Shown here: one piece after another, positions 1 through 10,152 of the stretch
Layout of the letters: every line of letters starts with the position of its first letter
How positions within the stretch are numbered: position 1 is the first letter of the stretch
Origin: Armatimonadota bacterium
Lineage (GTDB): Bacteria; Armatimonadota; Hebobacteria; CAIYQO01
Direction of reading: 5' to 3'
Length of the DNA: 11,048 nt
Assembly: GCA_038248345.1 (NCBI GenBank)
Contig: JBBRXO010000089.1
Coordinates: forward strand, 1-11,048
Notes under the pieces: model-generated
What the model saw: only the letters and a program-made list of their open reading frames with translations
Told to the model about the DNA's origin: nothing
Database searches by the model: none
Program-made: the position numbers and the translations under genes

Positions 1-1
1 C

Positions 2-817
2 AGTTATAATTCGCCAGTAGCCAGCGCACAGCTGAAGTCGGCCATTTTACTCGCCGGGCTGTATGCCGACGGCGTCACCACGGTGACCGAGCCGGTGAAG
101 TCGCGCGACCATACCGAGCGGATGCTGCGCGGCTTCGGCGTGGAGGTGGTGGAAGACGGGCTGACGGTGAGCGTACGTGGCGGGCAACAGCTGCTCGGGC
201 GGCACGTGGCGGTGCCGGGCGACATCAGCAGCGCGGCCTTTTTCCTGGTGGCCGGGTGCATCATCCCCGGTGCCGAGATCACCGTGCGTCACGTGGGGGT
301 GAACCCCACCCGCGCCGGCGTGATCGACGTGCTGCAGGCGATGGGCGCTGACCTGAGCATCACCAATACGCGCGAGGAGGGCGGCGAGCCGGTGGCCGAC
401 CTCACCGTGCGCCACGGCCAGCTGCACGGCGTGGAGATCGGCGGTGCAATAATCCCCCGGCTGATAGATGAGCTGCCGATACTGGCGGTAGCCGCCGCCT
501 TCGCCACCGGCACGACGACCATCCGCGACGCCGCCGAACTGCGCGTGAAAGAGAGTGACCGCGTGGAGACGGTGGCGCGCTTCCTGCGCGACATGGGCGC
601 ACAAGTGCAGGAGCGCCCCGACGGCATGGTAATCACCGGCGGCCACGCCCTGCACAACGCCACGGTAGACAGCGCCCACGACCACCGCGTAGCCATGAGC
701 GCCGCCATAGCCGCCCTGGCCGCCCACACCACAGTAAATATCAACGGTGCCGAAACCATAGCCACCAGCTTCCCAAACTTTCTGGAATTGCTGGGGGCGT
801 TGGGGTGGGCGGGGTGA
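2..817 (+). CDS. aroA: 3-phosphoshikimate 1-carboxyvinyltransferase (EPSP synthase), 3' part; start lies upstream of the window
   Basis: Frame is open from base 2: SYNSPVASAQLKSAILLAGL...SRDHTERML...PGDISSAAFFL...NPTR...IDELP...ELRVKESDR...DHRVAM...TSFPNF, all class II EPSPS motifs; stop TGA at 815-817. Confidence 0.98.
   Translation, partial: SYNSPVASAQLKSAILLAGLYADGVTTVTEPVKSRDHTERMLRGFGVEVVEDGLTVSVRGGQQLLGRHVAVPGDISSAAFFLVAGCIIPGAEITVRHVGVNPTRAGVIDVLQAMGADLSITNTREEGGEPVADLTVRHGQLHGVEIGGAIIPRLIDELPILAVAAAFATGTTTIRDAAELRVKESDRVETVARFLRDMGAQVQERPDGMVITGGHALHNATVDSAHDHRVAMSAAIAALAAHTTVNINGAETIATSFPNFLELLGALGWAG
744..817 (+). repeat. 74-bp aroA 3'-end direct repeat, copy 1 (att-like; within the intact gene)
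   Basis: ACGGTGCCGAAACCATAGCCACCAGC...GGGGTGGGCGGGGTGA recurs at 2825-2898 (2 mismatches) and 4007-4080 (4 mismatches). Confidence 0.97.
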
Positions 818-822
818 GGGTG

Positions 823-831
823 TGGTAGAAT
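823..831 (+). promoter_or_regulatory. possible extended -10 promoter (TGnTAGAAT) upstream of the AlbA_2 gene
   Basis: TGGTAGAAT 6 bp after the aroA stop; no convincing -35 element. Confidence 0.35.
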
Positions 832-853
832 AATCTGTGGGACGTTGCGTAAA

Positions 854-964
854 CGCGCATAAAATCGCAATCGACCAGTTTTATTGCGATTTTTATTGCG
901 AACGCGCAAATAATCGCAATTATCCAGAGTTTTATGCTATATTTTAGGCGTGTGCGCATAAAAT
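854..964. repeat. palindromic repeat array A (CGCATAAAATCGCA / TGCGATTTTATGCG units, about 50-bp period)
   Basis: CGCGCATAAAATCGCAAT...TTTTATTGCGATTTTTATTGCG, CGCGCAAATAATCGCAAT...TTTTATGCTATATTTTAGGCG, TGCGCATAAAAT; the first 18 bp (854-871) are identical to 2699-2716. Confidence 0.9.
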
Positions 965-988
965 GAGGCCATACGAGGGAATGCTACT

Positions 989-2698
989 ATGAGAACAGTG
1001 CAGCAGATAAATGATCTTTTACCGAAGTTGGACGAACATATTGCAGATGAGTTGGAAGACCAGGATTTAGATTTTAAGCAGTGGGACACGCAAAGTATAA
1101 AAAAGGCTGTCGATCTTTTGATACAGAATGCTATCTGTATGGCCAATGGCGGCGGTGGCACGGTTGTTTTCGGGGTGGCCGACAGAGTGGAATCACGCAA
1201 ATTGGCCATTAAAGGGGTTCCACTTGATGTCGATGTAAATCTGTTGAAACAAGCCGTTTACGACCGCACTGACCCCAAAATAACTCCTGTCTTCGAGGAG
1301 TTACCGGTGCCGGAGGGTACTGGACGCATAATTATTATGCAGATTCATCCGGGGATTCCACCCTACACGGACACCAGCGGTCATGGGACGATACGTGTGG
1401 GTAAAGATTGCGTACCCCTTACTGGTACAATGCGAGGGAAAGTCTCGGTAGTTACTGGTGATACCGACTTCACTGCCGAGGAGATACATACTTCATCTAA
1501 TAATTTGCTCTCACCAGTCGCGTTAGAGAAATTGCGTGACATTGCCCGTGCCGAAAATGCCCCCGATGATCTGATGCGCTTAAGTGACCGGGAGCTTATT
1601 CGCTCGCTCGGGCTGGAGCGGAATGGCAACCTGACGAAAGCAGCATTACTGTTGGCGGGCACCGAGGAGGCATTGCGCGAATATGTCCCCGGTTACAACT
1701 GGACATTTCTCAAAATGTCTTCCGATACCGAATACGATAATCGCGATGATCACAACTGGGCGATTCCCGCTTCAGTTATGCGTGTAGAAGAGCATATTCT
1801 CCCATACAATCCCATTACAACCTTGAGGCATGGCTTGTTTCACTTCGAGTATCGCACCTACCCAGAGGTAGCACTACGCGAAGCATTGATGAACGCATTT
1901 TGTCATAGAGACTACCGTATAGCGGGGCCGGTTATGATCAAGCTCTATCAGGATCGCCTGGAAATAAGCAATACCGGCGGGTTTATCGGCGGTGTCACGG
2001 CAAATAATATCTTGCACCACCAGCCAGTAGCGCGCAACCCACTGCTGGTGCAGGCAATGACACAGTTGCGCCTGGTGAATCGCAGTAATCTCGGCATCAG
2101 CCGCATGTACTCTTCGCTGTTGATGGAAGGCAAAGAACCTCCGGTTATTTGCGAGAGCGGCGACTCGGTGATGATGACATTCTTCCGGCGCGAGATATCA
2201 CCCGCTTTCCGCTTTTTTGTGGAAGAAGAAAGCCAGGCCGGTCGGAGTCTGAACGTGGATTCCCTGCTGATTCTGCAATATCTGCTGAAGCACAGGGAGA
2301 TTGACACCACCCAGGCATCCGCAATATGCCAACATTCAGAAGAACAAATGCGCGAGCAACTCGCAAATATGGAGCAAATAAACTACCTGGAACGTGGTGG
2401 CGCTAAACGCGGAACCTACTGGTCACTCAGCCACAAACTCGTCGTTACACTTGGGAATGATGGAAATGGCGGTCACCATAGCCGCATAGAATGGAATGTC
2501 GCCAAAACCAGTATCCTGAATATCTTGACGGAACGAGCGCGACATAATGAACCCGGCCTTAGTAATGCAGAAATCCGACAGATATGCCACTATGACCGAA
2601 ATCAAGTACGGCGTATGGTGCAAGAGCTTATGATGGAGAACCCCCGCGTAAGAATGACCGGAACAACGAAATCGGCACGCTACGAAATGATGCGTTAG
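989..2698 (+). CDS. Schlafen/AlbA_2 domain protein with HATPase_c_4 (RecG-C-like) and C-terminal winged-HTH domains
   Basis: 569 aa; N-terminal LEDQDLDFKQW and CMANGGGGTVVFGVAD (AlbA_2); YPEVALREALMNAFCHRDY and ARNPLL (HATPase_c_4); C-terminal HTH-like segments; GAGGGA RBS upstream. Confidence 0.88.
   Translation: MRTVQQINDLLPKLDEHIADELEDQDLDFKQWDTQSIKKAVDLLIQNAICMANGGGGTVVFGVADRVESRKLAIKGVPLDVDVNLLKQAVYDRTDPKITPVFEELPVPEGTGRIIIMQIHPGIPPYTDTSGHGTIRVGKDCVPLTGTMRGKVSVVTGDTDFTAEEIHTSSNNLLSPVALEKLRDIARAENAPDDLMRLSDRELIRSLGLERNGNLTKAALLLAGTEEALREYVPGYNWTFLKMSSDTEYDNRDDHNWAIPASVMRVEEHILPYNPITTLRHGLFHFEYRTYPEVALREALMNAFCHRDYRIAGPVMIKLYQDRLEISNTGGFIGGVTANNILHHQPVARNPLLVQAMTQLRLVNRSNLGISRMYSSLLMEGKEPPVICESGDSVMMTFFRREISPAFRFFVEEESQAGRSLNVDSLLILQYLLKHREIDTTQASAICQHSEEQMREQLANMEQINYLERGGAKRGTYWSLSHKLVVTLGNDGNGGHHSRIEWNVAKTSILNILTERARHNEPGLSNAEIRQICHYDRNQVRRMVQELMMENPRVRMTGTTKSARYEMMR
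2637..2698 (+). repeat. 3' end of the AlbA_2 gene, duplicated with divergence at 3865-3926
   Basis: AGAACCCCCGCGTAAGAATGA...AAATCGGC.CGCTACGAAATGATGCGTTAG is present in both places. Confidence 0.92.
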
Positions 2699-2818
2699 CG
2701 CGCATAAAATCGCAATACGTCGATTTTATGCGATTATTTATGCGCGTGCGCATAAACCGCGCATAAATCCAAAGCTTTATGCGATATTTTACGCGTGCGC
2801 GCATAAAATCGCATAAAA
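2699..2818. repeat. palindromic repeat array B
   Basis: Two and a half units of CGCATAAA.../...TTTATGCG starting immediately after the AlbA_2 stop; followed by CTGCTG and aroA repeat copy 2. Confidence 0.92.
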
Positions 2819-2824
2819 CTGCTG

Positions 2825-2898
2825 ACGGCGCCGAAACCATAGCCACCAGCTTCCCGAACTTTCTGGAATTGCTGGGGGCGTTGGGGTGGGCGGGGTGA
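2825..2898 (+). repeat. 74-bp aroA 3'-end direct repeat, copy 2
   Basis: 72/74 identical to 744-817; both differences are synonymous in the aroA frame (GGT>GGC, CCA>CCG). Confidence 0.97.
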
Positions 2899-2927
2899 AT
2901 CATATCATTGAAATTATGCATAATGCC

Positions 2928-2952
2928 AGAACTACCGAGAGTTCTTTTTGTT
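2928..2952 (+). terminator. possible weak intrinsic terminator
   Basis: AGAACT-ACCGAG-AGTTCT stem-loop followed by TTTTGTT, 30 bp after aroA repeat copy 2. Confidence 0.3.
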
Positions 2953-3141
2953 GATTTTCAGTTGGCATTCTTTGCAAATTCCATTGTGTGTGTCATTTTT
3001 AGCCACATTGTGGAAAAATTCTGAAAGCGGTTTCTCCTCTTTACAATGTTGACATATCTTTTTTATTGCTGCAGGCATACTATACCCTCCTTATAATTTA
3101 GAGTCGCCATATAAACACAGATATAACAGATCAGAGTTATT

Positions 3142-3507
3142 CTATTCACTCTGGTGATTAGCAAAGTCATTAGCGATCACCCAACCGATTCCTTCAGTTA
3201 TTGAAGCTGCTGTAGTCGCATTGACTACATTTCCCCACAATGGTATCCACCCCACCATCCATTGGCTTATCCCACGTCCGACTATTGTTGCCGTCGCAGC
3301 TGCAATTGCTGATTTTGCCGCGCTTTCGTCAATTCTCTTTTCAAACACTGCCCCTAGCGATATAACCATACCTATTTGGATAGGAACTATAATTAGATTA
3401 TCTGCTGTCGGCAGTTGCGCTCCCGCAAATCCAACACTACCAGCCAAAAGAGCTGCACTGTGAATAATACCATGGCACCGTTTTTTTTGATCATCAGACA
3501 TTGACAT
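3142..3507 (-). CDS. small hydrophobic protein, DUF697/YcjF-like
   Basis: 121 aa, Ala/Gly-rich; IIHSAALLAG, LPTADNLIIVPIQIGMVISLG and WIPLWGNVVNATTAASITEGIGW resemble DUF697; strong AGGAGGAG RBS upstream. Confidence 0.75.
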   Translation of the reverse strand: MSMSDDQKKRCHGIIHSAALLAGSVGFAGAQLPTADNLIIVPIQIGMVISLGAVFEKRIDESAAKSAIAAATATIVGRGISQWMVGWIPLWGNVVNATTAASITEGIGWVIANDFANHQSE

Positions 3508-3548
3508 TTTAATACTCCTCCTGCTTTGAACGCATATATCGGTTATAG

Positions 3549-3866
3549 CCGATTAGTGACAAGCTGAAACAACGCGGGTGGGATCAGGCGGAGCTGGCGC
3601 GGCGTAGCCGTATCACAACTGCGCAGATATCGCGTGTCTTCACCGGTGAGCGGCGTCCGGGGCCGACGACTTGCCGGGCTATCGCGCGCGCTCTGCAGTT
3701 GTCACCCGAAGAAGTATTCCGTGAGGCTGATCTGTTGCCGAAACTGCGGCAACAACCGGAAGGAACCGAGGAGTTACTACATATTTATATTGATATGAAC
3801 GAAGATGAGCGTGCCTGCACCCTCGCCATCGCTCGTACCCTCCATGGTATGGGGCACCGGGAATAG
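3549..3866 (+). pseudogene. XRE-family helix-turn-helix regulator lacking a canonical start codon (absent from the ORF track)
   Basis: Hand translation from 3552: ISDKLKQRGWDQAELARRSRITTAQISRVFTGERRPGPTTCRAIARALQLSPEEVFREADLLP...HGMGHRE*; in-frame TAG at 3546-3548 and no ATG/GTG/TTG before the HTH. Confidence 0.82.
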
Positions 3867-3926
3867 AACCCCCGCGTAAGAATGAACGAAAAAGCAAAAT
3901 CGGCGCGCTACGAAATGATGCGTTAG
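3865..3926 (+). repeat. remnant second copy of the AlbA_2 gene 3' end
   Basis: Encodes NPRVRMNEKAKSARYEMMR* versus NPRVRMTGTTKSARYEMMR* in the full gene. Confidence 0.9.
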
Positions 3927-4000
3927 CGCGCAATTAAATCGCAATTATCCAGATTTTTATGCGATTATTTATGCGTGCGCGCATAAATAATCGCATAAAA
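3927..4000. repeat. palindromic repeat array C, including a perfect 21-bp inverted repeat (3955-3975 / 3980-4000)
   Basis: TTTTATGCGATTATTTATGCG-TGCG-CGCATAAATAATCGCATAAAA followed by CTGCTG and aroA repeat copy 3. Confidence 0.95.
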
Positions 4001-4006
4001 CTGCTG

Positions 4007-4080
4007 ACGGCGCCGAAACCATAGCCACCAGCCTCCCGAATTTTCTGGAATTGCTGGGGGCGTTGGGGTGGGCGGGGTGA
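4007..4080 (+). repeat. 74-bp aroA 3'-end direct repeat, copy 3
   Basis: 70/74 identical to copy 1 and 72/74 to copy 2; includes TTC>CTC (TSFP>TSLP). Confidence 0.97.
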
Positions 4081-4123
4081 GAAGGAAGAGCAGCAGAGGA
4101 AAATGAGTATTGATGTAGGCTAT

Positions 4124-4569
4124 TCACCTATTGCCGAATATCTGTTGCGGGGTAATTATTTGATATGGGCTATTGCTGAGATTATTTGCCACCGGAAGAT
4201 CAGCAGTAAAGAAGGGGAGACGCAGATTATCTGCTAATGCCACATTGACGCCATCGTATACTGATATCCCGAAACGGCTCCCGATTTCAAAAGCAGTTGT
4301 TATCAAGGAATCAATCGGGTAGTATGTTATCGATAGTTGTTGTAAATCCTGCAGATCCTGCCGTGCCTGCTCAACTGGGTATTTGAAACGAGAATTCGTG
4401 TGCGCAAGACATTCGCATACTCTAATTGAGTCAATATCGGGGCGTGCAATTCCATCCCCGGAGTGAGCTCCTGGAAGAAGGTGAGAATCTCTTCTGAATA
4501 GTCTTCGACCGAGACTGTCTTCAAAAGAATGTTAGCATCGATCACACAAGAAAAAGGCACCGCACTCAT
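4124..4569 (-). pseudogene. vapC: PIN-domain (VapC-type) toxin split by a 1-nt frameshift near 4390
   Basis: N-part CVIDANILLK...APILTQLEYANVLRTR continues in another frame as RFKYPVEQARQDLQDLQQLSITYYPIDSLITTAFEIGSRFGISVYDGVNVALADNLRLPFFTAD; span is 446 bp, one short of a multiple of 3. Confidence 0.85.
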
Positions 4570-4811
4570 CGTTGCCTGTCTTCAGCAATCATTTCCGCAG
4601 CGGTCACCGGGAAACGTTCTCGGGTGGTCATGCGTTGGCGCATATTTGCCAGGGCGGCGTTGTGATCCTGGCGTTGTAGCAGAGTTTTTCGCACCCCTAC
4701 CTCGGTAAGATGCAACACTTCTGCAGGCACCGAGCGTCTTTCCAGTGCCGCCGCTTGTTTGATCTCTTCCATCAATTTTTCCGGTATATCGCGTAACATG
4801 ATTGTCGCCAT
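4566..4811 (-). CDS. ribbon-helix-helix (Arc/FitA-like) antitoxin
   Basis: 81 aa; MATIMLRDIPEKLMEEIKQAAALERRSVPAEVLHL RHH pattern and AAEMIAEDRQR tail; ATGA overlap with the PIN gene; GGGAG RBS. Confidence 0.85.
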   Translation of the reverse strand: MATIMLRDIPEKLMEEIKQAAALERRSVPAEVLHLTEVGVRKTLLQRQDHNAALANMRQRMTTRERFPVTAAEMIAEDRQR

Positions 4812-4828
4812 TGCTTTACTCCCATATC

Positions 4829-4837
4829 ATTATACCA
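4829..4837 (-). promoter_or_regulatory. extended -10 promoter of the TA operon
   Basis: TGGTATAAT on the minus strand, 17 nt upstream of the antitoxin ATG. Confidence 0.55.
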
Positions 4838-4869
4838 CTTGTTGCTCTTTTGATAACATCTTAGCAATG

Positions 4870-5970
4870 TCATTCCTCCTCATCCCGCAACAACCGCTCG
4901 TAGGCAGCGTAGCGTGCGGGGGTGATCTCGCCTTTTTCTACCGCATCTTTCACGGCGCAGCGGGGTTCGTGGGTGTGGCTGCAGTTGCGGAAGGCGCAGT
5001 CTTCGGCTAGTTCGGTGAATTCGCTGAAGCAGGCGGCGATCTCTTCGGGGGTCATCTTCCACAGGCCGAAGGCGCGGATGCCGGGGGTGTCGATGAGGCG
5101 GATGCCGCCCGCCAGCCGGTAGAGGCGCGAGGAGGTGGTGGTGTGGCGGCCAAGGCCGTCGCGCTGGCGCAGCGCGCCGGTGACCAGCTCCAGCGTGGGA
5201 TCCAGCGCATTGAGCAGCGAGGATTTGCCCACGCCGCTGTGCCCCACCAGCACGCAGGTGCGCTCCGCCAGCGCCGCGCGCAGCTCGGGCAACCCCTCGC
5301 CGGTGGTAGAGGAGCAGGGGATGATCATAATGTCCTGATCGCGGAAGGGCTGTAGCCGCGCCAGCTCCGCCTCCCGTTCCTCTGGGGTGAGCATATCCAC
5401 TTTTGTGGCGATGATTATCGGCGTGGCGCCCCCGCGCGATATGGCCAGCAACGCGCGCTCCAGCAGGCGCACGCGCATGGGCGGGAGTTTGACGGAGGTG
5501 ACCAGCCCCACCACGTCGATGTTGGCGGCGAGGATGCGCTCGATATGCACCGCGAAGGGATCCGGGCGCGAGAGTCGCGTGCGCCGCGGCAGCACCGCCT
5601 GCACCATCAACGGGTCGCCATCGAGGCGCACCATGTCGCCCACGGCGATGGCGCTCTTTTGCAGTTGCGCCAGCGCGGGGGCCAGCGGGGCCACAATCTC
5701 GGTGCCGTCGCACTGCACGGTGGCGCGTCGGCTAGTCAGCCCCACCACCAGCCCGGTGAACTTCGCCTCGTCGCCCAGCGTCACCGGCGCAGGTTCCGCG
5801 CGCTCCCGCTCCATGATACGCAACATCAGCTCATCAAGGGAGGGCGCGCGTTTGAACTGCTTCATGATATCGTTGCGCTCGGTCTCCGCGCGTTTGCGCA
5901 GCAGCTGTTGTCCGCCCCCCGGCAATGCGGAAAGCAGCACCTGCAAGCGTTTTTTCTCCTGGAATTTCAA
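4870..5970 (-). CDS. rsgA: ribosome small subunit-dependent GTPase A
   Basis: Circularly permuted GTPase motifs TKVD, GHSGVGKSS, GRHTTT, DTPG and the C-terminal CAFRNCSHTHEPRC zinc finger; TTG at 5970 chosen as start because of an AAGGA RBS 6 nt upstream (ORF extends to 5991). Confidence 0.96.
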   Translation of the reverse strand: MKFQEKKRLQVLLSALPGGGQQLLRKRAETERNDIMKQFKRAPSLDELMLRIMERERAEPAPVTLGDEAKFTGLVVGLTSRRATVQCDGTEIVAPLAPALAQLQKSAIAVGDMVRLDGDPLMVQAVLPRRTRLSRPDPFAVHIERILAANIDVVGLVTSVKLPPMRVRLLERALLAISRGGATPIIIATKVDMLTPEEREAELARLQPFRDQDIMIIPCSSTTGEGLPELRAALAERTCVLVGHSGVGKSSLLNALDPTLELVTGALRQRDGLGRHTTTSSRLYRLAGGIRLIDTPGIRAFGLWKMTPEEIAACFSEFTELAEDCAFRNCSHTHEPRCAVKDAVEKGEITPARYAAYERLLRDEEE

Positions 5971-6057
5971 AATTGTTCCTTTTTTATCCAATATAAGAGC
6001 AGCATGGCCCTAAGATCGTAAATAAGACGTTTCAGCGTGGTGAAGAACAAATGAGGA

Positions 6058-6132
6058 TGGTGGTCGCTACTGGATTCGAACCAGTGACCCCTACAGTGTG
6101 AGTGTAGTGCGCTACCGCTGCGCCAAGCGACC
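6058..6132 (-). tRNA. tRNA-Val (anticodon CAC)
   Basis: GGTCGCT/AGCGACC acceptor stem, CTACA-CTCACAC-TGTAG anticodon arm, GGTTCGAATCC T arm, encoded CCA. Confidence 0.96.
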
Positions 6133-6139
6133 GGGGACA

Positions 6140-6215
6140 TGGTGGGCGAAGAGGGACTCGAACCCCCGACCATCTGGGTGTAAACCAGACGCTCTACCAA
6201 CTGAGCTATCCGCCC
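6140..6215 (-). tRNA. tRNA-Val (anticodon TAC)
   Basis: GGGCGGA/TTCGCCC acceptor stem, TCTGG-TTTACAC-CCAGA anticodon arm, GGTTCGAGTCC T arm, encoded CCA. Confidence 0.97.
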
Positions 6216-6532: not shown

Positions 6533-7378
6533 ATGAATACATTTGGAATCATATTGCTGTTAGTTGAAATTGCCATTTACTCAGGTATTGCCTGGATGGC
6601 GTCGAAAAAATCGCTACCGCTGACACTCATCGGAGTATTGGTGGGGATTTTCTTCGGCTTCCTTATCAGTCTGCTAGCAGCGATGGTCACCGGTGCTACT
6701 CCTTCAACAGCATTTGTCCTCAGTCCTGACGGTGCCTCCAACATAGTCATCATCGTCATCGCCACCGTGGTGACGGCAGGTGTATTATTCGGTCTGTTGA
6801 GCTGGTTAGCCGGGAATAACGAGCCTGCTCCTGCTGTGAAGCGCGAAGCAGAGAAGCAAAAATTTAATTTCGCCCCCCGTCCAGCCGCACGGGAAGCGGT
6901 GAAGCCGATGATGATCCCTAACCGCACTGTGGTGAAACCCGGGACGCCATCAGTAACCAATGATGGGGTACATACTCCTGCGGAAGGTTTCATGCCCGTT
7001 CACCCTACCGAAGGTGTCTTTGGCATGGTCGCCATCCCCGCTGCTACTATTATTGATTCTATCCCCGAAGCGGCGAAGTACCTGGAAGGGATGACTACCG
7101 TCCGTGTTCGGTTGGCGCTGTTTATCCCCCAGTTGAAGAAAGCGACCGCCTGGCTTACCTGGCGACAGGTTGCCATGCAGAGCGAAGCGGAGCGGGCGAC
7201 GGAAAATGATCGACCCGATGTAGAGCTCCTCAATCGGTGGGTACGCATTCCCCCGCAGGTATATGTCTCACAGGTACCGATAGAGTATTTCAAAGTAACT
7301 ACTACAGCTCCTGTATGGATGAAACAAACTCCCGTTACACAGGAAGAGCAGTTCCCACTTGATGAAGGGCCTATGTAA
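6533..7378 (+). CDS. hypothetical membrane protein (3 N-terminal TM helices, Pro-rich linker, soluble C-terminal domain)
   Basis: 281 aa with three hydrophobic stretches in residues ~1-93; GGGGGAG upstream; 6 bp gap to mglA. Confidence 0.8.
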   Translation: MNTFGIILLLVEIAIYSGIAWMASKKSLPLTLIGVLVGIFFGFLISLLAAMVTGATPSTAFVLSPDGASNIVIIVIATVVTAGVLFGLLSWLAGNNEPAPAVKREAEKQKFNFAPRPAAREAVKPMMIPNRTVVKPGTPSVTNDGVHTPAEGFMPVHPTEGVFGMVAIPAATIIDSIPEAAKYLEGMTTVRVRLALFIPQLKKATAWLTWRQVAMQSEAERATENDRPDVELLNRWVRIPPQVYVSQVPIEYFKVTTTAPVWMKQTPVTQEEQFPLDEGPM

Positions 7379-7384
7379 GAAGCT

Positions 7385-7987
7385 ATGGCATCAATTAACT
7401 ATGCAACTAAAGAGATTAACTGCAAGCTGGTCTATTACGGGCCAGGTATGTGTGGCAAGACCACCAACTTGCAAGTGATTCACTCGAAACTCGACGCCAA
7501 CAAGCGCGCCGAGATGGTGTCGTTGGCGACACCGGGCGAGCGGACACTTTATTTCGACTTCTTGCCAATCTCCATGGCGGAGATCAATGGTTTCGTCGTC
7601 AAATTCGGGCTTTACACCGTTCCCGGACAGGTGATGTATAATGCCACCCGCAAACTGGTGCTCCGGGGCGCTGATGGCGTAGTCTTCGTTGCCGATTCAC
7701 AATGGAAGCTGATGCAGGAAAATGTCGATAGCCTGGAGAATTTGCAATCTAACCTCGCCGAATATAACGTGAATTTGAATGAACTTCCGTATATAATGCA
7801 GTACAACAAGCGCGATCTACCGGATATCGCCCCTACCTGGTACATGGATTACCTGTTAAATAATCGCGGAGTGCCGACATATGATGCGTGCGCTCCGGAG
7901 GGTAAAGGTGTGTTTACCACACTTTCGGCGCTCTGTCGCTTTGTAATACGAGATCTGGTTCACCGATTTGAATCAGGATCTTTCTAA
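7385..7987 (+). CDS. mglA: MglA-family small Ras-like GTPase
   Basis: INCKLVYYGPGMCGKTTNL, ERTLYFDFLP, YTVPGQVMYNATRKLVLRGADGVVFVADSQ, YNKRDLP. Confidence 0.96.
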   Translation: MASINYATKEINCKLVYYGPGMCGKTTNLQVIHSKLDANKRAEMVSLATPGERTLYFDFLPISMAEINGFVVKFGLYTVPGQVMYNATRKLVLRGADGVVFVADSQWKLMQENVDSLENLQSNLAEYNVNLNELPYIMQYNKRDLPDIAPTWYMDYLLNNRGVPTYDACAPEGKGVFTTLSALCRFVIRDLVHRFESGSF

Positions 7988-8005
7988 AAAATAAGGGGTC
8001 ATGCA

Positions 8006-8443
8006 GTGGAACATAACGATCTCATAATCGACCAGGACGACGCGGCGCTATTAGACCAGTGCCTGTCCCGTTTTATCGATGATACTGGCGTCCGTGTAGC
8101 GATGCTGATGGGGCGCGACGGGCATCTCGTCGCCCGCCAGGGTAACTCCAAAGACATCAATCTGGAGAGTTTCTGTGCGCTTTCCGTGGGGGCGTTCGCC
8201 TCCTCCGAGGCCCTCGCGCGGATGGCTGGCGAGGAGTCATTCAACTCCATCTTTCACCAGGGTGTGGTCTGCAACGTATACATCGCCATGGTCGGTGATT
8301 CTCACCTGTTGCTGGTGCTCTTCGATTATAACGCCAGCGCGCCATTGGTACGTCTGCAAACTCGCGTTACCTCGGAAGCCATGATCAACGTGCTTGACCG
8401 GGCATATACGCGTACCCGCGCCGCACGTATCCCCGGGTTTTAG
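8006..8443 (+). CDS. mglB: Roadblock/LC7-domain protein, MglB-like GAP
   Basis: 145 aa; AMLMGRDGHLVARQG, LSVGAFASSEALARMAGEESFNSIFHQG, LLVLFD...LVRL; adjacent to mglA. Confidence 0.9.
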   Translation: MEHNDLIIDQDDAALLDQCLSRFIDDTGVRVAMLMGRDGHLVARQGNSKDINLESFCALSVGAFASSEALARMAGEESFNSIFHQGVVCNVYIAMVGDSHLLLVLFDYNASAPLVRLQTRVTSEAMINVLDRAYTRTRAARIPGF

Positions 8444-8499
8444 TCTGATATAAATGAAAGTACAGTGCGCACAGCTAATGAGCGCGGAGTAAAAATAAA

Positions 8500-9102
8500 A
8501 TGGTAAAGGGTTCCTTCAAGGATATCTCCTTCATAGAATTATTGCAGTTAATGTACGGTGCTCGCAAAACGGGACGCATAGAAGTAACTCAAGATAAAAA
8601 ATGGGCAATGGTTATCTTCCGCGAGGGAGTAATCTGGCATGTGGAACCACGCGGATTCCGCGGGATCTCGGCAGAAGAAGTGGTCTATGAAATTCTGGCT
8701 ATGCAAGATGCCAACTTCATTCTGCAACGGGTAGAGATATTGCCCACCCTGGAACGTTCCATTAACTTGAGTACAGAGAACATCCTGATGGAAAGCGCAA
8801 AACGACAGGATGAAGAAGAGGCGGTCTCGGTAACGATGGGTGGCGACGGCAAAAAGACCAAGCAAGTGCTGCGTATCCGGCCCGGCAGTGAAGCGCGTGT
8901 ACGCTATGTCTCTTCAGAGGTCAAAGTTATTATTGCCCTGGTAGACGGCAACAGAAATCTCAACGAGGTAGTACAGCAGAGCGGTATCGATCAGACACGG
9001 GCCGCCCAGATTGTGAAAGACCTGATGGATCAGGGCATCCTGGACGCGATTGATGTAGTAGCTGAAAATAGCGCCAAGGGGCAAACAGTCGCTGGTGGGT
9101 AA
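8500..9102 (+). CDS. DUF4388 (PatA_N-like) domain protein with C-terminal HTH-like domain
   Basis: KGSFKDISFIELLQLMYGARKTGRIEV...IFREGVI...STENILMESAKRQDE; C-terminal LVDGNRNLNEVVQQSG...LMDQGIL. Confidence 0.85.
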   Translation: MVKGSFKDISFIELLQLMYGARKTGRIEVTQDKKWAMVIFREGVIWHVEPRGFRGISAEEVVYEILAMQDANFILQRVEILPTLERSINLSTENILMESAKRQDEEEAVSVTMGGDGKKTKQVLRIRPGSEARVRYVSSEVKVIIALVDGNRNLNEVVQQSGIDQTRAAQIVKDLMDQGILDAIDVVAENSAKGQTVAGG

Positions 9103-9144
9103 TGCGTTTATCACCACCGCCGGGATACCTTGGAAAGGCTTGTT

Positions 9145-10152
9145 ATGCAGTGCAATAACTGTGGCGCAACATTAGCAGAGGGGCAGACCAGCTGCCCGGT
9201 CTGTGTGGTAAGTGATGCTAAGTCCGCACACTCAGATATCCATTGCATGAAATGTGGCCGCCTCTTGCCCGCTAATGCCACCATGTGCCCGATTTGTGAT
9301 GCACGCAAACCGCAGGATCCGCTGACCAATCCGGTGGCGCCTACCACCATCGCCCCGCCAACTGTTCCACGCCCGGCCCCTGCCAAACCGGCCGTCGTGG
9401 AACAGTTGGTGAGTTGCCCGCATTGCCAGCGTCTGATCCCCCGGGGCGCCGAGCGTTGCCCCGCCTGCGGTATAGAATTTCGTCCCCATCATGCCACCGC
9501 GTCAGCCAGCCGTGTACCTCTGAACATACTGGCGCAGCGGGTGGCCGGTGAACTATGGGCAGAGCCGGTGACCGGCCTAGCCCGAGTGTCGACGGCCTTG
9601 CGCCCGGAGCGTATCCTGGCGCTGGGGATAATCGCCCTCGTGACGACCTACGCACTCCTCCTCGGAGCTGAACTGCTGGCAGCCAATGATTTATTTCACC
9701 TGGTCTTTCGCAGTGCATCACCAGCCGTATCATTAGCAGATATCCGCTACTCAACGCCCCCGCTCTCTCGTAATGGATCGTATATATTACAGGGGGTAGC
9801 GCCATTGTTACCGCTCGCTGCGCTGGCCTCGATGCTCTTTTTTGTCCGGCGTGATCGTCCGGCACGTGCCGAGACCGATCTTTTCATCACTGGGATCGTT
9901 CTGCTGCCGGGTGCACTCATCCTGCTGCTTTCTGCCGGTATCAACCTGATATTGCCGGGACTCTTCGCGTTGGGGGCGTACCTGGGGGGCAGTGTCAGCA
10001 CAGTAATGCTGTATGGCGCCCTGCATGGACGTTACCGGCTGGCGGAGCATCGTGCCCTCGTGCTGGCGCTACTGCTTGTTTCACTCACAGGCTTTATCAG
10101 CGCACTCGTGGTGGTATTTCTGCTACGTATGTTATTCTCGTGGAATTGGTAA
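9145..10152 (+). CDS. zinc-ribbon-containing polytopic membrane protein
   Basis: Six CxxC motifs (CNNC/CPVC, CMKC/CPIC, CPHC/CPAC), a Pro-rich linker and about 5 C-terminal hydrophobic helices; ATG at 9145 follows GAAAGG (alternative TTG at 9130). Confidence 0.82.
   Translation: MQCNNCGATLAEGQTSCPVCVVSDAKSAHSDIHCMKCGRLLPANATMCPICDARKPQDPLTNPVAPTTIAPPTVPRPAPAKPAVVEQLVSCPHCQRLIPRGAERCPACGIEFRPHHATASASRVPLNILAQRVAGELWAEPVTGLARVSTALRPERILALGIIALVTTYALLLGAELLAANDLFHLVFRSASPAVSLADIRYSTPPLSRNGSYILQGVAPLLPLAALASMLFFVRRDRPARAETDLFITGIVLLPGALILLLSAGINLILPGLFALGAYLGGSVSTVMLYGALHGRYRLAEHRALVLALLLVSLTGFISALVVVFLLRMLFSWNW

Follow-up and report, generated by a model that had tools for sequence, protein, structure and literature searches.

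Tandem copies of the aroA 3' end around defence-like cargo in an Armatimonadota genome, and palindrome arrays that co-vary with a helix residue of the adjacent Schlafen protein

Insertions with long target duplication, as described in the available part of the report by Furuta, Abe and Kobayashi (2010; PMC2853133), leave long duplications of variable length, often over a start or stop codon, contain no mobile-element genes and are found mostly in competent species; their mechanism was left open there. Tandem accretion of integrative and conjugative or integrative and mobilizable elements (ICEs, IMEs) and of decayed cis-mobilizable elements (CIMEs), and the ssrA islands of Dehalococcoides, produce tandem blocks behind the 3' end of a gene, each closed by a gene tail and some without an integrase (PMC5704250 and PMC3146451, in the parts accessible). 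Homology-facilitated illegitimate recombination (HFIR) has been invoked, in the accessible text of PMC5361080, for the immunity arrays of the Vibrio type VI secretion system, in which an upstream anchor is conserved, the newest module lies nearest to it and older ones are cut back downstream, with no integrase. Integrons, in turn, are ordered arrays to which accessory cassettes are added at one end. The locus described here is a tandem array behind the gene aroA in an 11,048-nt stretch of DNA (the window), which is the entire contig C89 (JBBRXO010000089.1) of the Armatimonadota genome GCA_038248345.1 (G000; 2.98 Mb, 95.7% complete). Insertion with long target duplication, without a recombinase, probably left the repeated aroA tails as its scars; the palindromes beside them are putative binding sites of a Schlafen protein rather than cassette ends.

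The window opens with the 3' part of aroA (EPSP synthase, 2..817, plus strand; PF00275, E 8e-71; 69–74% to family orthologs), the anchor gene of the array. The last 74 nt of this gene are present in three direct copies on the plus strand: copy A (744..817), which is the functional aroA end, copy B (2825..2898) and copy C (4007..4080), each ending at the TGA. A and B differ at two positions, A and C at four and B and C at two, while the final 39 nt are identical in all. The copies were recovered by blastn with E values of about 1e-28 and 1e-26, and no further aroA tail was found in G000. Coordinates and blastn thus agree with the first-pass annotation of the window, made from the sequence alone; its distances of 2081 and 1182 bp hold as spacings from stop to stop, not as enclosed DNA, which amounts to 2007 nt in cassette 1 and 1108 nt in cassette 2. 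Neither cassette contained an integrase or transposase domain in its scanned open reading frames (ORFs), as also annotated, nor any phage gene.

Cassette 1 carries a gene for a 569-aa protein (989..2698, plus strand) with Schlafen (AlbA_2, PF04326) and HATPase_c_4 (PF13749) domains and two winged helix-turn-helix (wHTH) domains, whose matches are weak and below cut-off. The gene is followed by an array of palindromes with CGCATA/TATGCG half-sites plus CTGCTG (array R1, 2699..2824), and then by tail B. On the other side, between tail A and the gene, the left end of the cassette (818..964, plus strand) is what remains of the 3' end of a Schlafen gene, with an array of its own at 846–964, overlooked in the first pass. 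The relic is 78.5% identical over 121 nt to 2691–2809, its alignment starting within the final Schlafen codons; it is possibly an upstream operator. An extended -10-like stretch is seen by eye at about 823–831; a promoter scan gave no signal above shuffles. Cassette 2 contains a 48-aa ORF with a CxxC...CxxC pattern and no family (2932..3078, minus strand), a 121-aa protein without Pfam match (3142..3507, minus strand), for which DUF697 is a lead only (11% of the members of its ESM Atlas cluster; PADLOC BnzA, E 1e-5), and an XRE-family HTH gene without its start (3549..3866, plus strand; PF01381, E 1e-13). Fused to the XRE stop, in the same frame, are the last ~20 Schlafen codons (3865..3926, plus strand; 91% to 2637–2704), followed by an orphan array with CTGCTG (R2, 3927..4006) and tail C.

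Much of this cargo is defence-like, in line with the first-pass annotation. Array, CTGCTG and tail do form the right end of both cassettes, as it had stated, but the common part begins about 60 nt earlier, within the Schlafen gene (2637–2704 vs 3865–3932, 91%), so that cassette 2 closes with a remnant of cassette 1's gene, and the array is a feature of the Schlafen family, as detailed below. That cassette 2 closes with this gene end and its array, the left array being a third relic, would also suit local tandem duplications of an aroA tail and Schlafen block, then deletions and replacement, with no incoming DNA for the repeats. This is quite improbable, since different DNA follows each tail from the first base past the stop, the cargo of cassette 2 has no other copy in G000, and the right ends have diverged by 9–25%, the tails by only 3–5%.

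Assembly support was assessed with contigs of two sequencing runs, X1 and X2. Depth in X1 was 10.2 at 484–805, 11.5 at 789–2836, 13.6 at 2869–4018 and 11.6 at 4052–6169. Both cassettes are at the depth of their flanks, not at half of it, which argues against a strain mosaic; the assembly was possibly made from X1, whose depths are therefore no independent support. In addition, tail-specific substitutions are joined to unique flanks in the contigs 789–2836, 2807–2886 and 2869–4018. An assembly chimera of strains with one cassette each is therefore extremely improbable, even though there is strain variation at aroA and the collapsed 42-nt tail contig had a depth of only 16.5, compared with the two- to threefold depth expected. 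The variation consists of a second aroA 5' part in G000 (C26, 25394–26273), 93.6% identical to window 1–596 and then running into unrelated sequence at the contig end; it is a strain bubble or a misassembly. Four consecutive G-runs at 795–814, present in both other tails, are G-quadruplex-like and may explain the low tail depth. A family ortholog (L034) has a G-rich aroA end similar to that of the window.

The same footprint is found at other genes. The 3' ends of 1958 ORFs of G000 were scanned for a second copy further downstream that also ends at the stop, and so were those of 1112 ORFs in 1.60 of the 2.5 Mb of the sister genome G001 (77% complete), the sole other genome of the genus available. 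Nine and three matches were obtained, respectively, of which five and one were dropped, as was one of three at loci of Schlafen homologs; the dropped ones were matches of 23–54 nt or resembled repetitive extragenic palindromic sequences. aroA (twice), aconitase and DUF711 were retained in G000, ligA and a fucosidase gene in G001. A family control gave 0 of 61 ORFs in 90 kb, a sample too small to count. The aconitase tail is doubled (83 nt, 100% identical) and encloses a Fic gene plus a small, convergently oriented ORF, forming a 905-bp cassette (G000:C69, 2514–3584; L191, where L numbers denote extracted DNA loci). The DUF711 tail is doubled (46 nt) around a CBS protein and a P-type ATPase (G000:C128, 688–4605; L192), and G001:C124 carries this cassette with the tail reduced to about 20 nt. 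A ligA tail (77 nt) flanks a YhcG/DUF1016 gene (L242, 1663–3090), and a fucosidase tail (58 nt) flanks a sulfatase gene (L297, 5200–6750), with the join within the last codons of the latter. Duplication length in the two genomes thus takes the values 46, 58, 63, 74, 77 and 83 nt. No common motif was found in the DNA preceding each tail copy, and array plus CTGCTG is absent from the aroA tail of G001 and from all other footprint loci. Since the footprint occurs at aroA, aconitase, DUF711, ligA and fucosidase, a single host process is a likelier cause than the loss of five different integrases.

For the aconitase cassette, an empty site exists in G001, where aconitase is followed by a small inverted-repeat insert and then by what lies behind the second tail copy in G000. 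The insert, right after the aconitase stop (L222, G001:C18), measures ~200 nt, has terminal inverted repeats, resembles a miniature inverted-repeat transposable element and recurs many times in both genomes. In G001, an MNT-HEPN pair is followed by a cut-back Fic module, the reverse of the order in G000. Further doublings were seen near Schlafen homologs: the brxC tail (~95 nt, L061, 7890–9920) and the pheS tail (172 nt, 8 kb apart, L105), as well as a 64-nt tail (L150), a gene start (L117/L147) and a 223-nt stretch (L097). The Schlafen gene as driver of tail duplication was rejected: a flanking repeat was present in six of 59 homolog loci, two of them near-identical, and in none of 18 later loci. 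Among the six, only L061 has a clear tail of the upstream gene.

The aroA end itself is reused, within this genus only and with two breakpoints. On G001:C188, a FitA/PIN-like module (96% to that of the window) is followed by 55 other bases, a 63-nt aroA tail, a left end of cassette-1 type (~70 nt, matching the first ~70 nt after tail A) and, beyond it, AbiLi/AbiLii, a GH43 gene and a tRNA-Val. The AbiL pair (L031, 803–2773) consists of AAA_21 and RloB genes; ahead of it lie this fourth aroA tail and an incomplete orphan array. The breakpoint is at 744 in the window (two copies) and at 755 in G001, so that the single fixed crossover point expected of CIMEs was not found, the G001 value being possibly due to a later deletion. 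In run X2, which may not be independent of G001, at least three different sequences follow the tail (cassette 1, cassette 2 and the G001-type left end); the run also contains a right end that shows 13 differences and a variant of the XRE gene preceded by other DNA, and X2 contigs diverge at 3553/3555, consistent with a deletion at the start of the XRE gene. Comparison of the aroA region among relatives, as proposed in the first pass, showed variable content in G001 and X2, but a single aroA end in nine of ten other family genomes, none being found in the tenth. Of the idea of aroA as a reusable attachment (att) site, the reuse stands, through the AbiL genes and the X2 variants; an aroA-specific site served by an integrase in trans is not supported, with the breakpoint unfixed and the same footprint elsewhere.

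Recombinase-free insertion with long target duplication could have proceeded as follows. DNA of a relative with aroA and other downstream genes would pair through aroA, and its far end would be joined illegitimately. A join in the last 60–80 nt of the recipient aroA would push the old tail behind the cargo (duplication type), while a join inside resident cargo would trim it (deletion type), as may have happened in cassette 2, which keeps 20 Schlafen codons and the array. Once flanked by tails, a block could pair by its aroA side and its tail with the aroA end of any strain, with no special enzyme needed. Ordinary homologous recombination would then insert it ahead of the residents, with the newest nearest aroA, or loop it out, and cassette 1 could have come to lie ahead of cassette 2 by such stacking.

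Several points weigh against this account, besides the low depth of the collapsed tail contig. The contigs cannot phase the cassette order over the 39-nt identical stretch, and show no empty aroA site, circle or joint; the aroA end of G001 was not assembled, and the tail is collapsed in the contigs. Tails B and C, like the variant right end of X2, have common alleles at tail positions 5 and 32, absent from tail A, which fits right end and tail travelling together, but two positions make a thin argument. Anchored capture yielding a duplication would extend HFIR beyond the insertion-deletions for which it has been cited, and only the fucosidase join shows microhomology, an imperfect match of ~10 of 13 nt; the XRE-Schlafen join has 2 nt. 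Finally, tails B and C have one exact breakpoint, as expected of site-specific integration, and the XRE gene with the divergent small genes of cassette 2 resembles the switch of a decayed integrative element.

These last two points are also expected from tandem accretion of CIMEs, in which an ICE, IME or satellite whose integrase targets the aroA 3' end would have inserted repeatedly, each copy then losing that integrase. The architecture matches that of PMC5704250 and of the integration-module-free ssrA islands (PMC3146451), in the parts of these sources available, including the retention of attL/attR-like repeats without integration and transfer genes; the new DNA from the first base past each stop and the extra DNA of cassette 2 in X2 also fit. 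Nevertheless, we consider this origin unlikely. Separate lost integrases would be needed for aroA, aconitase, DUF711, ligA and fucosidase, and the 905-bp aconitase cassette has no integrase remnant despite its 100% identical tails. The breakpoint differs in G001, nine of ten other family genomes have a single aroA end, and in our literature search aroA appeared only as a gene of multilocus sequence typing, never as a site of integration. A degenerate tail pattern had no match in metagenome and viral contigs, and an integrase-bearing element with aroA-tail ends, sought as the first-pass annotation had suggested, was found neither there nor in G000 and the family genomes, the genus being represented by two genomes only. 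Unlike the CIMEs and ssrA islands of those sources, the present locus has no cognate integrase-bearing element found, an unfixed breakpoint and a footprint at many unrelated genes.

G000 encodes two PF00589 proteins, one scoring as XerD and the other 87% identical to the XerC of G001. Both are far below the cut-off of TIGR02249, so that no IntI of integron type was seen. One serine resolvase domain is present, at a contig end, and PF07508 had no match in G000. Since the genome is incomplete, a missing recombinase means not found rather than absent.

As judged from the available part of PMC2853133, the locus shares with the insertions described there a variable duplication above 30 bp (74 nt here), an insert below 20 kb (2007 and 1108 nt), the absence of mobile-element genes, a repeat that ends at the stop and leaves the gene intact, and a genome with competence genes. 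The last trait is weak: ComEC, DprA and ComM are present in G000, and also in 8–11 of 14 controls. Differences are the tandem stacking at one gene end, the use of several housekeeping genes per genome, and the cargo, which comprises Schlafen, toxin–antitoxin, AbiL, YhcG, transport and sulfatase genes instead of restriction–modification genes, whose presence was a search criterion in that report. The aroA inserts hold Schlafen, XRE and DUF697-like genes and no restriction–modification gene, which makes the locus a variant rather than a strict member of that class. The Vibrio immunity arrays differ, as far as the accessible text of PMC5361080 goes, in that here the anchor's own tail is duplicated, so that the block would be mobile by plain homologous recombination. 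Compared with integrons, there is neither an IntI nor a cassette-end site recurring across loci. The aroA array probably represents a tandem form of an insertion type already known, rather than a new system built on an att site. On this reading, integron-like arrays of defence genes can build behind housekeeping genes without a recombinase, a single rare duplicating insertion being what would turn a block into a cassette movable and stackable by host recombination. It also cautions that a duplicated gene end is not always an att site.

The palindromes, judged by where they occur, belong to the Schlafen gene family and not to the cassette. Schlafen homologs at loci devoid of an aroA tail, many of them between brxC and pglX, also have arrays behind their stop codon. 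At least three half-motifs were present in the 200 nt downstream of the gene in 49 of 72 homolog loci, and upstream in two of 65. Palindrome clusters in G000 are limited to the three arrays of the window. This distribution bears on the first-pass proposal of minimal, integron-like cassettes that end in palindromes plus CTGCTG and are mobilised in trans; the recombinase would be either a dedicated one or that of the host (Xer). Arrays would lie on both sides of the tail in a hypothetical circle, X2 contains variant right ends, and GTGCGCATAA is similar to what we take to be the XerC arm of dif. The proposal is nonetheless very improbable: the arrays occur without an aroA tail and change with a helix of the protein, array plus CTGCTG is lacking at the G001 tail and the other footprint loci, no recombinase candidate was found beyond XerC and XerD, and viral and metagenome contigs contained no element with these ends. 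A dif-like reading of the arrays was ruled out by this co-variation and by the arm spacing of 8–10 nt, as opposed to the presumed 6 nt of dif.

Co-variation between protein and array was studied in 66 complete loci, reduced to 38 non-redundant proteins, with the motif classes picked after inspecting the data. Among 569 columns, residue 541 had the highest mutual information with motif class (excess of 1.23 bits, next 0.83). This residue is an arginine in the window (codon 2609–2611) and belongs to the last wHTH (2513..2635, plus strand), where by HTH anatomy it falls in the predicted recognition helix D-R-N-Q-V-R-R. Arg541 went with TATGC in nine of nine proteins, and in none of the 29 others; Tyr, Phe or Leu went with AATGC (13/14), Ile or Val with AATGT (4/4), and Thr or Gly with AATTG (6/6, plus two Lys). 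In the 170 nt past the Schlafen stop at the loci L041–L160 and L340–L359, at least six half-site classes occur, each tied to the residue at this position. On a tree of residues 1–500 the motif changes 20 times, and independent pairs agree in eight of eight cases for Tyr/Phe/Leu (p ~0.008) and in five of five for Arg, the latter not significant. Pairs at least 70% identical in the last wHTH had a common motif in all 53 cases with the same residue class and in none of 15 with different classes. In a held-out test with 19 new loci, one ran off, five had no prediction, and all 13 predictions made were correct.

Some results limit this conclusion. When the tree is built from the last wHTH with column 541 left out, only eight motif changes are needed (shuffled minimum 18), the classes are nearly monophyletic and the independent pairs drop to one or two; only three of the 13 held-out proteins are less than 90% identical to a training sequence; and linkage could account for part, conceivably all, of the co-variation. 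The few changes on the wHTH tree indicate that helix and array pass from one protein body to another together, as a linked module, and near-identical bodies (L124/L125, L104/L119 and L122/L123) bear different helix-plus-array modules. As the simplest reading of the co-variation, the last wHTH probably binds its cognate array. It would read the half-sites beside its own gene, helix and array being swapped between bodies as one module. The protein of L344 ends before the last wHTH, and its locus has no array.

More tentatively, Schlafen-GHKL-wHTH proteins, which belong to the most frequent Schlafens of bacteria, might carry their own DNA dock, an array directly behind the gene and read by the last wHTH through a one-residue code, which would tether or restrain the tRNase on host DNA. 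If so, the tRNase would be freed when a phage causes the chromosome (or bacteriophage exclusion, BREX) to be lost or modified; specificity swaps would let systems coexist; orphan arrays, as in cassette 2 and G001, would be decoys or landing pads; and the array would be a DNA antitoxin or DNA-integrity sensor, not the end of a mobile element. For a large and mechanistically unexplored class of Schlafen proteins, the co-variation predicts the DNA target and suggests a rule of specificity at the level of one residue, and the helix-palindrome code is the part of the result most worth following. No description of arrays beside Schlafen genes was found in the open literature, supplements and subscription journals being outside its scope.

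Fusions of Schlafen with HisKinase-HTH make up 19.2% of prokaryotic Schlafens (PMC13056530), and BREX-linked ones are known from at least 1017 taxa (PMC12839542), both according to the accessible parts of these sources; general background is given in PMC2884548 and PMC13617665, likewise available in part. The 569-aa protein agrees with that class in its Ex4(E/D)xK motif, its Schlafen-GHKL-HTH order and the frequent location of its family between brxC and pglX. The motif is intact as Ex4DxK (E23, D28, K30) and invariant in 65 homologs. What the available accounts in PMC13056530 and PMC12839542 do not include is the DNA array beside the gene and the swappable module of helix and array. The nearest solved relative is PDB 3LMM. 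The gene has a GC content of 50%, compared with 67% in aroA. No homologs were found in 400 other genomes of the phylum at E<=1e-120, nor relatives in viral contigs and plasmids, and a class-level search around the genome G404 returned G404 only. Six more HATPase_c_4-family matches are present in G000, on contigs C6, C18, C25 and C53.

Beyond the last tail, the window contains a FitA-like antitoxin gene and a frameshifted toxin gene (4127..4811, minus strand; PF22513, E 3e-5; 96% to G001:C188 1–439). The toxin gene, without Pfam match, is one that we take to be PIN-like from its motif. This module lies ahead of the tail in G001. Next is an rsgA-like GTPase gene (4870..5991, minus strand; PF03193), with close homologs in one of 11 other genomes of the order (two in G006) and none found in the 77% complete G001. 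Since it is rare in the order, it is regarded as an accessory paralog, not a core flank. Where G000 has this gene, G001 has the GH43 gene beside tRNA-Val. An Rfam scan of the window found two tRNA-Val and nothing else, and past them a cluster at 6533–10152 encodes an MglA-like GTPase, a roadblock MglB, a DUF4388-HTH protein and a double-zinc-ribbon membrane protein.

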